Of a stretch of 64,000 nucleotides of DNA, positions 53,520-59,890 are shown piece by piece. Below the pieces are notes generated by a model. That model did not search any database. It was not told where the DNA came from and saw only the letters and a program-made list of their open reading frames with translations. The stretch covers positions 1-64,000 of the forward strand of contig JBHLKM010000013.1 of assembly GCA_048886685.1 (NCBI GenBank). The letters run 5' to 3'. Positions within the stretch are counted from its first letter, which is position 1. Each line of letters begins with the position of its first letter. A program made the position numbers and the translations under genes. Source of the DNA: Candidatus Hodarchaeota archaeon. Lineage in GTDB: Archaea; Asgardarchaeota; Lokiarchaeia; Sigyniarchaeales; SOKP01.

Positions 53520-56444
53520 TTGACATCTTTAACTTTAGACACTGAAAAAATTGAAACATTGATCCTTAATGGATATAATGAAGAGGCAGCTGAAGATATA
53601 TTTAGTTTTATTGAAGATTATCAAAATCATCATGATAAAGAACTCATTTACAGATGTCTTAGTTTATTAAACCTGATTTGTGATAAATCTCCTTCAATAG
53701 CAGAAAGAACTGTAAAAAATGTGAAGAATTTCATTAATGACTCGGATTCTTGGATAAGATTGGTTTCTTTGGAGATCTTATATCAAATCAGTATGTTTAG
53801 ACCAAACTTGTTAATAGATTTAATCGATAAAATCAGAGGACGATTATTTGATCAAGATCCAACTGTGAGAAGATTAACTGTAAAAATTATTGGAAATTTG
53901 ATATTAACACTTCACATTGATTTAGAAGAAATTCACGAAATAATCGAGGAATACACAGAAAAATTGATGGATAATGATTGGAAAGTAAAACTTAATGTAA
54001 TAAAGACTATACAAAAAATACTAAATCAAGATTATACTAAAATCAGAAACTTGGAACCACTACTATCAATGGTAATAATCAATCTTAGAGATGAAGATGA
54101 TGATGTTGCAAAAGCTGCCACTGAGCTCCTTAAGATTCATGGCACATACTTCTTATCTAAAGAAAAATTATTCTATATTCTACTCAACCTTCTTTATAAT
54201 GAAAAAAATAGAGTCAAAGAATTAATTATTTGGTTATTTGGAGAAATTGGTAAAGAAAAATCTTCTGAAATAATATCGATTATCCCAAAACTAATAAATC
54301 TCTTAAAAGAAAATGATTATCGCATCCAATCAAAAGTAATAGAAGCTCTCGTAAATATCGCAGAAAATAATTTTGACCAAATATGGGCTAATTTATTAAA
54401 TTCAATGTCAGAAACGGGAGATTCTTATTATAGAAATTCATTAATAAATGCGTTATATCAGCTCTGTCAAAAAAATATTACAGAAATATTTCCTTATTTC
54501 TTCGAAGAATTAGAGAATCCTTCTGAAAACATTAGAGAAGGAATTGCCCTTGTGTTTAAACGTTTATTTGAAGAATATCAAATTGAAATTGAAAATGAAA
54601 TAACGAGAATATTATATCGATTAGAGTCGCGTTATTGGAGAGAGAGAAAACAAACAATTAATCTTTTAAACCACATATGTTTCATTTTAAAAAATCATAA
54701 AATTGCTGTCTGGATTACAATTGAATTGAATAATTCTTTACAAATTGAAAAAGATCCAGAAGTGAAGGAAGAGATCTATTTCACATTAGAAAATATTAAT
54801 AATAACTTTAAAAAAATTGATTCTACAATAAAACGAATAAATTATGAATTAGCATTATTTCATAATAAAATTTTAAAGTTTCAAAAAATTCCAGCACAGT
54901 TCAGAGAAAAACTAAATTCCTATATTGAGAATTTTAAATTTAACGACACAGAAGTTCAATTAAATCGAAAATATAGTAAAATTCTTAAGAAAATCAAAAA
55001 GTTTGATAATCTAATTAATAAATTTGACTATAAAAGGTTAGCTTTTGAATTAATTGAAGAATGGGAAGATACTAAAGTCCAGATTATTGAAGAATTAAGC
55101 ATTATAAAAAGTTTCATCTCTCAGATATGCGAAGAGAAAAAACAAGAGTTTATCTCTGATTTACATCAAGAAATTAAGTTATTAGATAATCGCATAAGTA
55201 TCCTAAAAGCTGAATTTGATTACATAAAAGAAAATGAACTTGAAATGAATGTTAACACTGGTGAAAATGAAACATTTACTTATATAACCCAAATAAGAAG
55301 GAAGCTATTTAAGTTAGATGGAGAAATAAGAGAATTAATGATAAACAATGTAGAGTTTGATGAGATCTTTAAAGATCTGGTAAGAAAATGGGTTTCAATA
55401 AAAATTGAAATTCAGGAATATTTAATTGATTTAGACAGACAATTTAAGACTATAAAAGATGATTTAGTCGACTATATGCTACAAAGTAGAGTCGCAGGGG
55501 AAATATCTGATACTGAAGAAATAAACGGGATTGATAATGTACTTAGATTTCAACTCCTTCAGGGACATATCCAATCGATTATTACAGAAAGAATCGAAGG
55601 AATTAAAAAACTCAATGATAATTTTGAAACACTCTTATCAAAATTAGAATTTTTAATAAAAACTAATGAGTTTAGTGATGGTCAAAAGTTATTAGAAATG
55701 AATTCCAGACAAATCCAGAATTACATAGCGGAAACTGATAAACAAATTGAAAATATACTCGGTAAAGAGAAATTATTGGAAGATAATAATGTATTTAACT
55801 TATATGTGAGACCATACATTAACAAATTAAACACTTCAAAAGAATTATTGATAAATCGACTTAAAGATTTCATGCGAAAGGGAAACGATAAACTGTATTT
55901 AAATCAAATTAAGTATTATTCGAAGATTAGTAATCCGATAAATTTAGATTTACTCTCGAAATTTTTAAATATTAACACAGAGCAACTAAAAGAAACTGCT
56001 CTTAAATTCATCAACAATAATAAGCTTAATGCCAAAATTGTAAATGAAAAATTATTATTTGATCAAATCGAATCTGATATTACAGATTCTAAAGACGTTT
56101 TATTTTTTAAAAATATTAAGACAATTGGTAATGAAATATATTTGAACTTCAAACTAACTAATCCTTCAAATTTTGATTTTCGAGATTTTCAAATTTCTCT
56201 AAAAGTACCAACTTATGTTAATATACAGAGAAAACAAAGCTTCCCAAAATATCTACAGTTAAATGAGTTAAAACCTGGTAGCGCATTTAAATTTAATTAT
56301 GTCTGTAAGATTGATAAACAAAAAGAACTTAAGAAAAATCTGTTTGATCCGACAGCAGATGAAATTAAACTTGAATTATTCTACAAAGATCAATTCAACA
56401 ATACAAGAAAGACAACTAAACATATCGATTTATTTATCCCATAA
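53520..56444 (+). CDS. Large HEAT-repeat solenoid with coiled coil, PCI-like winged helix and C-terminal Ig-like beta-sandwich
   Basis: HEAT units (DSDSWIR, DQDPTVR, DNDWKVK, DEDDDVA); INLDLLSKFLNI...FINNNKLNAKI; C-terminal LNFKLTNPS...LKPG beta domain. Confidence 0.7.
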   Translation: MTSLTLDTEKIETLILNGYNEEAAEDIFSFIEDYQNHHDKELIYRCLSLLNLICDKSPSIAERTVKNVKNFINDSDSWIRLVSLEILYQISMFRPNLLIDLIDKIRGRLFDQDPTVRRLTVKIIGNLILTLHIDLEEIHEIIEEYTEKLMDNDWKVKLNVIKTIQKILNQDYTKIRNLEPLLSMVIINLRDEDDDVAKAATELLKIHGTYFLSKEKLFYILLNLLYNEKNRVKELIIWLFGEIGKEKSSEIISIIPKLINLLKENDYRIQSKVIEALVNIAENNFDQIWANLLNSMSETGDSYYRNSLINALYQLCQKNITEIFPYFFEELENPSENIREGIALVFKRLFEEYQIEIENEITRILYRLESRYWRERKQTINLLNHICFILKNHKIAVWITIELNNSLQIEKDPEVKEEIYFTLENINNNFKKIDSTIKRINYELALFHNKILKFQKIPAQFREKLNSYIENFKFNDTEVQLNRKYSKILKKIKKFDNLINKFDYKRLAFELIEEWEDTKVQIIEELSIIKSFISQICEEKKQEFISDLHQEIKLLDNRISILKAEFDYIKENELEMNVNTGENETFTYITQIRRKLFKLDGEIRELMINNVEFDEIFKDLVRKWVSIKIEIQEYLIDLDRQFKTIKDDLVDYMLQSRVAGEISDTEEINGIDNVLRFQLLQGHIQSIITERIEGIKKLNDNFETLLSKLEFLIKTNEFSDGQKLLEMNSRQIQNYIAETDKQIENILGKEKLLEDNNVFNLYVRPYINKLNTSKELLINRLKDFMRKGNDKLYLNQIKYYSKISNPINLDLLSKFLNINTEQLKETALKFINNNKLNAKIVNEKLLFDQIESDITDSKDVLFFKNIKTIGNEIYLNFKLTNPSNFDFRDFQISLKVPTYVNIQRKQSFPKYLQLNELKPGSAFKFNYVCKIDKQKELKKNLFDPTADEIKLELFYKDQFNNTRKTTKHIDLFIP

Positions 56445-56644
56445 ATTTGTATAACGAATTAAACTCTTCTCGATTTTAAATATTGTTATAAATTTGAAAT
56501 AGCATTTTTTCCTCCATATAACTTTTTATAAGAAATTTGCTTATCTTTTTAGTGAATTTATTTATTTTTTCAATAAATTATATGAAAAAGATTAATATAT
56601 TCATAATTCTAAATTAAGATACTAATCATATGATTTAAAAAATT

Positions 56645-56651
56645 GAGGTGA
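56645..56651 (+). promoter_or_regulatory. Shine-Dalgarno GAGGTGA of selD-1
   Basis: 3 nt before ATG 56655; the identical motif precedes selD-2. Confidence 0.75.
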
Positions 56652-56654
56652 AGG

Positions 56655-57686
56655 ATGCAAGAGTTAGAGAGTTATCGATTAACATTGCAAACGAAACTTT
56701 TTGGCTGAAATTGTAAACTCGACGCGGAAAAATTAGACAAGCTACTGTCCAACGTTGGATTAAAAGGTGATATTGAGGATTCTTCTGTAATTCTAGTACC
56801 TGGTACTGATCTTGCCATGGTAAAAAACATTGATATTTTCACTCCAATCATAGATGAGCCAGAAATCATGGGAGAGATCGCTGCTGCCAATGTAACTAAC
56901 GACATTTTTGCACTAAACGTATTAAACGTTTCAGGAATGCTTGTATTCTTAGGAATGAAGAAAAATATGCCTATGTACATCGCTGAAGGCTTATTAAAGG
57001 GAATCAAAAATTTCATGGAAAACAAGATAAACTCCAAAGTCCTTGGTGGTCATACTATATATTCAGAATGGCCGTTAATAGGTGGCGAGGCTTCTGGATT
57101 TGTAGATAAAAACAAGATTATTAGAAAAAACTATGTTGATAAGGGAGATATACTAATACTAACCAAACCTGTAGGAAATCAAGCCATCATGGCAGCATAT
57201 CGTCTACAAAAAAACAATCCCGCTCTTATAGAGAATTATTCAACATCAGAAATTGATACTTCGATTGATTTAGCAGTTGAATTAATGACTAAACCACTTC
57301 AAGATGTAGTAGAAGTTATACATTCTTACTCTGACGTTAAATTTGTTCACTCAATGACAGATGTCTCTGGATTCGGTTTAGCAGGTCATTTAAAAGAGAT
57401 GCTACAAAATTCTAAACTTTCAGCGACTATTAACCAAGTGCCTATTATTAAATTAACTAGAGAATTGGCTGATGATTTTGGCTATAAATTTAATTCATGC
57501 GAAATGCCAGAAACTGCCGGTGGAATGCTCCTCTCTGTAGATCATAAACAAGCAGAAGAGTTCTCAGAACGACTCATAAAGTTTGGTGTCCCAAATTGGA
57601 TTATTGGATCAATCGATAACGTTCACGAGGCTAAATATGTTCACGTTTCTGAAGATGTTGAACATATTGAAATAACAAAATTCTAA
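56655..57686 (+). CDS. selD: Selenophosphate synthetase, selenoprotein (Sec at codon 18, TGA 56706-56708), copy 1
   Basis: MQELESYRLTLQTKLFG-U-NCKL is in frame with DIFTPI, GGHT, LTKPVG, TDVSGFGLAGH and ETAGGML. Confidence 0.93.
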
Positions 57687-57758
57687 CGATGTCGAGGAAA
57701 TAAGCAAAAACACATCATTGTGGGTGCTTATTGAGAATTCTGTTGCCCAACAGCATCG
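57687..57758 (+). promoter_or_regulatory. SECIS-like 3'-UTR element of selD-1 (AGGA/GA core)
   Basis: AGGA-A-AUAAGCA-AAAA-CACA...UGUG-GG-UGCUUAU-UGAG, side hairpin CUGUUG/CAACAG, outer stem CGAUG/CAUCG. Confidence 0.8.
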
Positions 57759-57975
57759 AAAAATATTGATAGCTTTTGTTATTTTATTATTTTACAACTT
57801 TCTTTTCTTCCCGTAAATTATAAATTCAATTCTATTTATTCTTATTTATTGAAATTATCGATAGATAATATCGAAAAGATTAATTAATATTTCCTATTAT
57901 TTAAGAAATATATTAAATGGATTTAATAAAAAATAATTGTATAATATTACATACTCAAAATCTTAATTTCAGTGT

Positions 57976-57982
57976 GAGGTGA
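57976..57982 (+). promoter_or_regulatory. Shine-Dalgarno GAGGTGA of selD-2
   Basis: 2 nt before ATG 57985. Confidence 0.75.
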
Positions 57983-57984
57983 TT

Positions 57985-59013
57985 ATGCCTAAAGAGTCAG
58001 ACTATAGATTGACAAAACAAGTGAAAATTTTCGGATGATCGTGTAAGTTAGGTGCAAATGAATTAAATGATTTACTTGAGAAAACTGGTCTAGCTGGAGA
58101 TATCGAAGATGCTGCTATTGTTCCTGTTCCGAATTCTGATATCGTTCAAGTGAAGAATTTAGATATCTTTACCCCTATCGTTGATGAACCGGATATTATG
58201 GGGCAGATTGCAGCATGTAATGTAACAAATGACATATTCGCTATGAATGTTCCTGAAATTTCCGGAATGTTGGTATTTTTAGGGATTAGTACAAAAACTC
58301 CAATGAAGATAGCAGAAGGAATATTAGAAGGAATTAAATACTTCATGGAGAAAAAAATCAACTCGAAAGTTGTAGGAGGTCATACAATCTACTCAGAATG
58401 GCCATTAATTGGCGGAGAAGCTTCGGGATTCGTCAATAAAAACGCCATTATTTATAAACAAGGAGCTAAAAACGGAGATAAGCTATTATTAACTAAACCT
58501 ATAGGTTTACAACCTATAATGGCATCCTACAGGATTTTAAAAGATATGCCAGAGATGCTTGAAACATATTCTGAAAAGCAACTTAGAAAATCAATAAAAC
58601 TCGCAATAAAAATAATGACAAGTTCGAATCAAGATGTTGTAAAAACGATTCATTCCTTGGATGATTTTTCATTTATTCATTCAATGACAGATGTTACAGG
58701 GTTTGGTCTGGCGGGGCATCTATTAGAAATGCTTCAAAACTCTGATTTATCCGCAATTATTGAGACCATACCCTCCATTAAGCACTCTCAAAGCCTTGCT
58801 GAGGATTTGGGTTATGCATTTGATGAATGTGAATGCGCAGAAACTGCTGGTGGTATGCTTATGGCTATTGATCCTTCAAATATAGAAGAATTTTCTGACA
58901 TTCTTTCAGAAAAAGGAATTTCAAATTGGATTGTAGGTACAATTGATACAGTAACTCCTGGACTTGTGAGAATTTCAGAGAACGTTGAGAATATAGAAAT
59001 TACTAATTTTTAA
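57985..59013 (+). CDS. selD: Selenophosphate synthetase, selenoprotein (Sec at codon 18, TGA 58036-58038), copy 2
   Basis: MPKESDYRLTKQVKIFG-U-SCKL is in frame with DIFTPIV, GGHT, LTKPIG, TDVTGFGLAGH and ETAGGML. Confidence 0.93.
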
Positions 59014-59086
59014 CGATGTTGATGATATAAGCTAAAACACATTATAGTGGGTGCTTATTGAAATTTCCACCTGCGAGGTGGCTTCA
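59014..59086 (+). promoter_or_regulatory. SECIS-like 3'-UTR element of selD-2 (canonical AUGA/GA core)
   Basis: AUGA-U-AUAAGC-U-AAAA-CAC...GUG-GGU-GCUUAU-UGAA, side hairpin CCACCU/AGGUGG; 46/54 nt identical to the selD-1 element. Confidence 0.85.
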
Positions 59087-59095
59087 AATTTGCAA

Positions 59096-59890
59096 TTATA
59101 TTCTTTCTTTAATTTCCCCTTTGAGGTTTAAAACTATTTCTCTTATTTCAGATAAAGCTTTATCAACCAATTCTTCACCATGTTCTAAATTAAAAGCAGT
59201 AATAGAAACCTCAACCAAAACGGAGAGACCAATTTTAGGATGGGTTTTGATCCATAATTGAGGATATTTTTCTTCTAACTCACTAGTATATGGAGCAATT
59301 TGGCTTTCTCCAATACCGGAGAAAAGAAATCCTTTTTCGATGAACTTACCTTTCTTTTCTTTTAAAATTGGATTAATAATATTTCTAAACATTGACTTCA
59401 TCTCTGCTGGTACTCCTGGAAGTATAAAAATTGTTGTATTTTTTTCTTTAATTTTCACCCCTGGGGCAGTACCTACCGTATTTGGTAAAGGTATGGAGCC
59501 TTGAGGGAGATATGCCATTTTTTTTCGTTCTTTTGTCATTCCCTCAAGTTTTAAAATTCCTCGTTCATACGCATGTTTGTAAGTTTTCTTTATAGAATTG
59601 AGAGCATGTTCATTAAGTACCAATTTTCTTTTTAAGCCAAATGCTATTCCCTCCAAAGTCATATCATCAAAGGTTGGGCCCAATCCTCCCGAAGTAATAA
59701 CCAAGTCTGGACTTCGACTCAAAATTTCTTGTATTGTACTAGAAATTACATTCAGGTCATCTCCTACCGTTGAAATTCTTTTTAGTTGATGACCATAGCG
59801 AGCAATCCTTTTTGCCATCCAATTTGAATTGCTATCAAGAGTTTTCCCGATTAAAATTTCGTTTCCAATTACGAGTATTTCTGTATCCAT
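59096..59890 (-). CDS. CinA-like / molybdopterin-binding domain protein
   Basis: IGNEILIG, DSNS, VGDD, SGGLGPTFDDMT, GTAPG, LPGVP. Confidence 0.88.
   Translation of the reverse strand: MDTEILVIGNEILIGKTLDSNSNWMAKRIARYGHQLKRISTVGDDLNVISSTIQEILSRSPDLVITSGGLGPTFDDMTLEGIAFGLKRKLVLNEHALNSIKKTYKHAYERGILKLEGMTKERKKMAYLPQGSIPLPNTVGTAPGVKIKEKNTTIFILPGVPAEMKSMFRNIINPILKEKKGKFIEKGFLFSGIGESQIAPYTSELEEKYPQLWIKTHPKIGLSVLVEVSITAFNLEHGEELVDKALSEIREIVLNLKGEIKERI

Follow-up and report, generated by a model that had tools for sequence, protein, structure and literature searches.

A tandem pair of predicted selenocysteine-containing selenophosphate synthetases, each with its own type II SECIS element, in a family of Lokiarchaeia

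Why would an archaeon keep two self-dependent selenophosphate synthetases next to each other? The question is posed by two selD genes in the 64,000-nucleotide stretch analysed here (hereafter the window; positions 1 to 64,000, forward strand, of JBHLKM010000013.1, contig 13 of the 47 contigs that make up the 4.4-Mb assembly GCA_048886685.1 of a Candidatus Hodarchaeota archaeon of the Lokiarchaeia, a metagenome-assembled genome with an estimated completeness of 100%). The upstream gene, selD-A (A), and the downstream gene, selD-B (B), occupy the interval 56645-59086, which is bounded by the first ribosome-binding site and the far end of the second selenocysteine insertion sequence (SECIS) element, and they are the only selD copies of the host genome. 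Judging from sequence, we consider it probable (roughly 0.78) that both genes encode working selenocysteine (Sec)-containing selenophosphate synthetases (SelD/SPS) and form separate transcription units, with B as the core and A as an accessory copy. The coding features are as follows.

56645..56651, + strand, Shine-Dalgarno-like sequence GAGGTGA of selD-A
56655..57686, + strand, selD-A, diverged and putatively accessory paralogue, 343 aa with TGA read as Sec
57976..57982, + strand, Shine-Dalgarno-like sequence GAGGTGA of selD-B
57985..59013, + strand, selD-B, ancestral-like and putatively core paralogue, 342 aa with TGA read as Sec

The original prediction held that both selD open reading frames (ORFs) extend upstream through an in-frame TGA at codon 18 and that each extended gene is preceded by GAGGTGA, and both points proved correct. 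Read through this codon (56706-56708 in A, context FG-U-NCK; 58036-58038 in B, context FG-U-SCK), which is the sole in-frame TGA of either gene, the two frames give uninterrupted proteins, and standard table-11 ORF calls begin past it, at an internal Met or Val (56817 and 58150). Both GAGGTGA sites lie 2-3 nt 5' of the ATG; GAGGTG stands ahead of the selD-A start in 20/20 orthologues, and the ribosome-binding site, the 17 codons 5' of the TGA and the TGA itself are kept across all orthologues.

Both proteins are recognised by the NCBIfam selD profile TIGR00476 (179.2 bits for A and 198.5 bits for B, curated cut-off 125), and Pfam AIRS and AIRS_C exceed their gathering scores in both. When aligned with SelD/SEPHS proteins of solved structure, U18 and K21 correspond to C17 and K20 of the E. 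coli enzyme (GAGCGCK) and to the Cys-x-x-Lys of Leishmania SEPHS2 (GCSCK), in agreement with the earlier assignment of codon 18 to the catalytic Cys/Sec position. ATP/metal-site residues were described in E. coli (D51, D68, N87, D91 and D227) and in Leishmania (D64, D97, D120 and D279) (PMC7595633). Asp60, Asn79, Asp83 and Asp236 of the Loki proteins align with E. coli D68, N87, D91 and D227, while Asp42 corresponds to E. coli D51 by its D-x-x-V motif (the printed alignment being one position off) and aligns directly with Leishmania D64; Leishmania T95 aligns with Asn in both Loki paralogues. U18, K21, D42, D60, N79, D83 and D236 are kept in 56/56 aligned sequences, comprising A, B and outgroups. 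By profile and alignment, A and B are full-length members of the SelD family. They share 60% identity in protein and 63% in nucleotides, with only 42% at third codon positions, on which ground recent gene conversion between the two coding sequences was rejected.

How would the TGA be decoded? Each selD was expected to carry its own 3' SECIS-like element, and this is borne out by a covariance model, derived from the corresponding 3' elements in relatives, which matches at both sites and whose pairs covary.

57688..57757, + strand, SECIS-A, covariance-model match of 95.6 bits
59015..59085, + strand, SECIS-B, covariance-model match of 88.6 bits

These elements, of about 70 nt, begin 1-4 nt after the stop codon. 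The first 57 nt past the stop codons of A and B differ at only 8 positions, compared with 42% identity at third codon positions, and the 3' element is therefore conserved far beyond the neutral level. The same model finds no third selD-SECIS in the host genome, where its next match has an E value of about 8. No Rfam family reaches its gathering score in the window, and a search of 56400-59300 at E values up to 10 returned two chance snoRNA matches, leaving the eukaryotic and bacterial SECIS models unmatched.

We derived the structure from an alignment of 43 selD 3' regions of the genus, later widened to 88 covariance-model matches. It consists of a lower helix (GAUG/CAUC), AUGA opposite GA (tandem G.A pairs), a 6-bp helix, AAA and a 3-bp mini-stem, with a GC-rich side hairpin, whose loop usually has GC, placed on the 3' side between core and lower helix. 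SECIS-A has the lower helix GAUG/CAUC, the core AGGA_GA, the 6-bp helix AUAAGC/GCUUAU, unpaired AAAAA, the mini-stem CAC/GUG and the side hairpin at 57740-57753; SECIS-B has GAUG/CUUC, AUGA_GA (59022-59025 and 59060-59061), the same AUAAGC/GCUUAU helix, unpaired AAAA, a mini-stem and the side hairpin at 59067-59081. In the alignment 97.8% of cells pair, against 26-50% in slid controls, and compensatory changes occur in 14/18 pairs, a value reached by 0/500 shuffles; they affect all five pairs of the side hairpin and 6/9 pairs of the upper helix and mini-stem. The 3' GA and the unpaired AAA are invariant within the genus, and the core reads AUGA in 83 of the 88 elements, UUGA in three, and GUGA and AGGA in one each. 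Minimum free energy folds reproduce this three-way arrangement in the selD 3' untranslated regions (UTRs) of several outgroups (loci L054, L055, L043, L041 and L040) and in 2/4 host VhuD 3' UTRs (G000 C6:148056 and C11:123954). The Lokiarchaeial SECIS thus appears to be a three-way junction, in which the lower helix encloses the SECIS hairpin and the GC-rich 3' side hairpin, and by structure and covariation both 3' elements of the pair are type II eukaryote-like SECIS elements, that of A with a deviant core.

In some selD genes (L018, selD-B of G011; L145 of G172; L147 of G296), a type I lokiSECIS, recognised by eye from its 9-bp stem and 11-nt A-rich loop ending in AG, takes the place of the usual type II element, which suggests that SECIS elements have been swapped between genes.

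The host genome encodes a complete set of Sec machinery, which was sought as the original prediction had advised: a tRNA-Sec (63 bits, cut-off 47; anticodon TCA by ARAGORN) adjoining SepSecS (483 bits), an archaeal EFSec (a 472-aa GTPase with the aSelB_III domain, archaeal SelB domain III) and a PSTK-like kinase of the KTI12 family. Further selenoprotein genes are present as well, namely four FlpD/VhuD homologues with two in-frame TGA codons each; all 11 other FlpD matches lack an in-frame TGA.

C2:241180-241548 of G000, FlpD/VhuD homologue with two in-frame TGA codons
C6:147627-147995 of G000, FlpD/VhuD homologue with two in-frame TGA codons
C11:123522-123890 of G000, FlpD/VhuD homologue with two in-frame TGA codons
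C6:218704-219069 of G000, FlpD/VhuD homologue with two in-frame TGA codons

With this machinery and these genes in place, the objection that the host might be unable to make Sec fails. The other selenoprotein genes of the host use a different, type I element: at least two of the four TGA-bearing VhuD 3' UTRs show, by eye, AUGA, a 9-bp stem, an 11-nt A-rich loop ending in AG and then GA, the feature set published for type I lokiSECIS (PMC4989117).

Profile searches of this genome, estimated to be 100% complete, found neither SelU (TIGR03167) nor YqeB (TIGR03309), so that Sec synthesis is the sole known use of selenophosphate there. A second selenium pathway was considered as the reason for a second SelD and rejected, given that neither gene is found and that the neighbouring genes are unrelated to selenium. 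Bin41, with 19 genes the largest known archaeal selenoproteome (review, PMC13188914), also has an A-type selD (locus L103), which fits a higher selenophosphate demand in the group that bears selD-A.

Is the pair real and retained? Both selD copies are present in 20 of the 23 other species-level genomes of the genus, with one TGA in every copy, whereas Sec-selD is single-copy in the other families of the order. Among species-representative genomes, a scan recovered A-type selD in 47 loci; in 42/47 a B-type gene follows on the same strand, and the other five end at a contig edge. The tandem-bearing records belong to the Promethearchaeota (former Lokiarchaeota). In this wider sample the A-then-B tandem also occurs in a second genus of the family, and seven other genera have the B-type only. 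TGA occupies the Sec codon in 44/44 selD genes from the genus, in all A and B copies from 51/52 further loci and in 24 copies from sister genera. Wherever contigs permitted the check, selD-bearing genomes of the family proved to have the B-type, which is also the sole type in single-copy relatives.

Could the duplication be an assembly error, or TGA18 a true stop that leaves truncated, inactive products? The host genome is, after all, metagenome-assembled, with an estimated contamination of 8.4%, gene callers begin both ORFs past the TGA, and the core of SECIS-A is unusual. Nevertheless, the copies are only 63% identical in nucleotides, and the same tandem recurs in no fewer than 42 independent assemblies, of which two are closed chromosomes; the kept pre-TGA codons, ribosome-binding site and TGA, the compensatory changes in the SECIS and the full Sec machinery speak against decay. 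This explanation is already contradicted, and we give it next to no credence.

When did the two copies part? In trees, which the original prediction had proposed to build, all selD of the family form one clade, within which the A sequences form a monophyletic group (100% SH-aLRT) with a long stem of 0.31-0.46 substitutions/site, nested in a grade of B-type sequences (support 95), while the B branch is near zero. The two genes are thus diverged paralogues, as predicted, and this topology implies that one duplication inside the family produced A, with asymmetric divergence. Since then A and B have evolved at the same pace, as indicated by within-clade identities of 79.5% and 79.6% and by ratios of nonsynonymous to synonymous substitution (dN/dS) of 0.08 and 0.10, respectively, values of strong purifying selection on both. 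The synonymous sites between A and B are saturated and the duplication predates two genera with dozens of species; on these comparisons the duplication is old and the pair stable. Eleven positions are fixed differences between A and B, and the N-terminal 21 residues of selD-A are nearly invariant.

This history bears on a likeness to the animal SPS1/SPS2 pair (SEPHS1/SEPHS2), in which a selenophosphate synthetase was also duplicated and one copy diverged faster. SPS1-type copies have lost the catalytic Sec/Cys and are not known to make selenophosphate. Unlike animal SPS1, both Loki copies have long retained Sec, Lys and the residues of the ATP site: TGA is present in every intact A and B copy examined, the exception being the disrupted A of G019, and the ATP/metal-site Asp and Asn residues are intact. 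The suggestion that the locus parallels an early stage of an SPS1/SPS2-type split is therefore unsupported, as the state is old and stable, with Sec kept in both copies.

The disrupted copy in G019 (L058 at about nt 760-870, G019:C136; also L110) carries a 31-nt, partly palindromic insertion with a frameshift directly after the Sec codon; this copy may be pseudogenic, misassembled or interrupted by a very small intron-like insert. Other irregularities were also observed within the genus. The selD-A of G017 (L027) is near that of the window (synonymous divergence, dS, of 0.62), whereas the selD-B of that genome is far removed (with saturated dS) and falls in another part of the tree, and the selD-B SECIS elements of G013 and G018 (L021 and L029) bear an A-type side hairpin. 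It is possible that the oddities of G017, G013 and G018 stem from recombination or gene conversion within the genus, or from chimeric bins.

Are the two copies bound to each other? The signals between and upstream of them suggest separate units, and the earlier proposal of a second promoter for selD-B finds a counterpart in conserved motifs, resembling the transcription factor B recognition element (BRE) and TATA box, upstream of each gene.

56584..56600, + strand, BRE/TATA-like motif of selD-A, GAAAAAG followed by ATTAATATAT, about 60 nt 5' of the ATG, proposed from conservation
57774..57793, + strand, T-rich tract after SECIS-A, candidate archaeal oligo-T terminator, proposed from T-runs in orthologues
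57872..57890, + strand, BRE/TATA-like motif of selD-B, CGAAAAG followed by ATTAATTAATAT, proposed from recurrence in relatives

Upstream of A, the motif (G/C)(G/A)AAAA(A/T)ATTAATA(T/A)AT is present in 19/19 available sequences, about 55-70 nt 5' of the ATG and between variable flanks; most lineages have ATCGAAAA and then a T/A-rich box upstream of B. Most A orthologues have stretches of four to seven T some 20 nt past the SECIS. In G004 and G006 (loci L047 and L046), a gene of the HGD-D family (PF06050, 2-hydroxyacyl-CoA dehydratase component, 429-432 aa) stands between A and B, and a comparably sized gap is present there at about six further loci. The separate motifs, the T-runs and the intervening HGD-D gene point to two independent transcripts, each of which would need its own SECIS.

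The stretch 57855-57878 contains a palindrome-like TTATCGATA(A) together with a repeated ATCGA, which are situated just 5' of, and overlap, the BRE-like motif of selD-B. These sequences are conserved upstream of selD-B in many genomes and may constitute a regulator binding site.

Loss is confined to A. At least two losses of selD-A were identified, in the subclade of G012, G014 and G022 and in G108, where B is found alone; in G012 and G014 the HEAT-repeat gene that otherwise precedes the pair is directly followed by B, and in G022 the HGD-D gene is retained with selD-A gone (loci L122:177-1475, L039 and L033 were among those compared for these arrangements). These losses also bear on whether A and B might be the two halves of one heterodimeric enzyme, with the ATP sites of SelD at the subunit interface. 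SelD/SEPHS is active as a dimer (PMC7595633), A without B was seen only at contig ends, and the two paralogues are under equal constraint, all of which would suit obligate partners. However, B stands alone both in the ancestral state and after the loss of A, and the two genes have separate promoter motifs and, in some genomes, another gene between them. Since B exists without A, it must at least work as a homodimer, and we regard a heterodimer as improbable, though less so than an artefact.

The reading that we prefer, of two Sec-containing enzymes from separate units, can be put as a model, in which the insertion of Sec, the activity of the enzymes and the reason why selection keeps two copies are predictions from sequence. 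Each gene would be its own unit, made of a BRE/TATA-like promoter, a Shine-Dalgarno sequence, a coding sequence with UGA18 and a SECIS in the 3' UTR, to which A would add a T-tract. The type II SECIS of each mRNA would direct the archaeal EFSec and Sec-tRNA(Sec) to decode UGA18 as Sec; it would be a three-way junction that combines the side hairpin with a core of kink-turn type (AUGA_GA, but AGGA_GA in SECIS-A), a short helix, unpaired adenines and a mini-stem. A single duplication within one Lokiarchaeial family would have yielded the pair; B would have kept the ancestral sequence as the indispensable copy. A, following a burst of divergence directly upon duplication, would have come under purifying selection as an accessory copy liable to loss. 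The benefit would most likely be a larger, or differently regulated, supply of selenophosphate in a lineage with a large selenoproteome; the two-tier supply responsive to selenium that the original prediction put forward would be a speculative form of it.

Several observations weigh against this model. The trees are quick IQ-TREE searches with SH-aLRT as their only support values. The promoter and terminator roles of the motifs are proposed from conservation in AT-rich DNA. The core of SECIS-A (57695-57698) is AGGA, with G at 57696, a singleton among the 88 elements; AGGA_GA falls outside the published core variants [A/G]UGA_[G/A]A, to which the AUGA_GA of SECIS-B conforms as a canonical core. 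Either a recent change or an assembly (consensus) error would account for it, and Sec insertion into selD-A may be weakened in this genome. Finally, Leu215 of A takes the place of an Asn, within an M-x-x-x-N motif, that is present in 24/24 B copies, 12/12 outgroups, human SPS1 and Leishmania SEPHS2, and this substitution could mean altered chemistry instead of more of the same enzyme. The second genus has the Leu in its A copies as well. E. coli N210 and the corresponding A. aeolicus Asn fit the motif, gap placement being ambiguous there, and 111/122 diverse SelD representatives (50%-identity set; 91%) have the Asn.

Leu215 leads to the question of whether selD-A has acquired a new function, in another selenium or sulfur transfer or in sensing or regulation, as a Sec-retaining counterpart of the animal SPS1/SPS2 division of labour. 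The long branch of A opposite the near-zero branch of B, the fixed differences, the replaced Asn, the nearly invariant N-terminus and the dispensability of A in some lineages would all be expected in that case. On the other hand, all alignable catalytic and ATP-binding positions are intact in A, no other selenium-pathway gene was found beside the pair or in the genome, and a few other SelD lineages lack the Asn too. Among the latter, P0020, which has Leu at this position like P0011 and P0016, has no close orthologue in 300 Asgard genomes (identity at most 48%). We consider a new function unlikely, though a better candidate than the heterodimer. We are similarly doubtful of a broader proposal in two separate parts: that selD-A is a functionally distinct selenoenzyme, which may make or deliver another selenium or sulfur species or tune B, and that the archaeal SECIS-binding factor may recognise the conserved side hairpin as a second element. 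Were the first part true, selD-A would represent a prokaryotic parallel, with Sec retained, to the way SPS1 and SPS2 divide their labour. The two tandem Sec-containing enzymes, with B as core and A as accessory, remain the reading that we favour.

How much of this was known? Mariotti et al. (2016; PMC4989117) reported a Sec-containing SPS of Lokiarchaeota with a distinct, type II-like SPS lokiSECIS, and the elements described here resemble theirs in the UGA at the catalytic position, the 3'-UTR element directly after the stop, the AUGA...GA core, the adenine run, the short main stem and the extra apical stem, save that the core of SECIS-A reads AGGA; theirs too differs from the type I lokiSECIS of the VhuD, HdrA, VhuU and PrxL genes. 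Their account, however, is of a single Loki SPS gene, a fragment completed from a superset assembly with 'apparent paralogues' collapsed on purpose, whereas we find two old tandem paralogues. Huang et al. (2024, ISME J; PMC11227280) reported two or more selD genes in 51 Loki/Thorarchaeia organisms, described selD as mostly bearing a type II eSECIS-like structure, gave the lower stem of selD SECIS as G[A/U]G_C[U/A]C, and suggested that the extra copies point to a more active role or a new function. Their main text is silent on tandem order, A and B groups, a single origin, asymmetric divergence, loss patterns, separate promoters and A-specific substitutions, and we know of no mention of the co-varying side hairpin or three-way junction in either study. 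Compared with the eukaryotic type II SECIS (Rfam RF00031, SECIS_1), the Loki element shares the 3'-UTR location, the tandem G.A core, the unpaired adenines and the apical mini-stem, but it has a much shorter helix II (6-7 bp) and, interposed between core and lower helix, a side hairpin. Extra selD copies and type II SECIS elements in Lokiarchaeia were thus already published; to these we add the A and B orthologous groups, their single origin and asymmetric divergence, the pattern of A loss, the separate promoter-like motifs, the Asn-to-Leu change of A, the co-varying side hairpin and the AGGA singleton.

The genes around the pair are unrelated to selenium. Directly upstream (53520-56444, + strand) lies the gene of a 974-aa HEAT-repeat, adaptin-like protein (Pfam Adaptin_N, 40 bits, cut-off 37), a eukaryote-like signature that is syntenic in relatives; the other neighbour encodes a MoCF_biosynth (CinA-like) protein.

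With the basic facts already in the literature, the value of this locus is that of a cleaner map and of specific hypotheses, and not of a discovery. SelD is the one selenoprotein that archaea, bacteria and eukaryotes have in common, and the eukaryotic type II SECIS has been proposed to descend from the selD SECIS of Asgard archaea. Two stably kept Sec paralogues, each with its own SECIS, provide a natural comparison, in which the two elements are near-identical save for the side hairpin and one core base (AGGA in A, AUGA in B).

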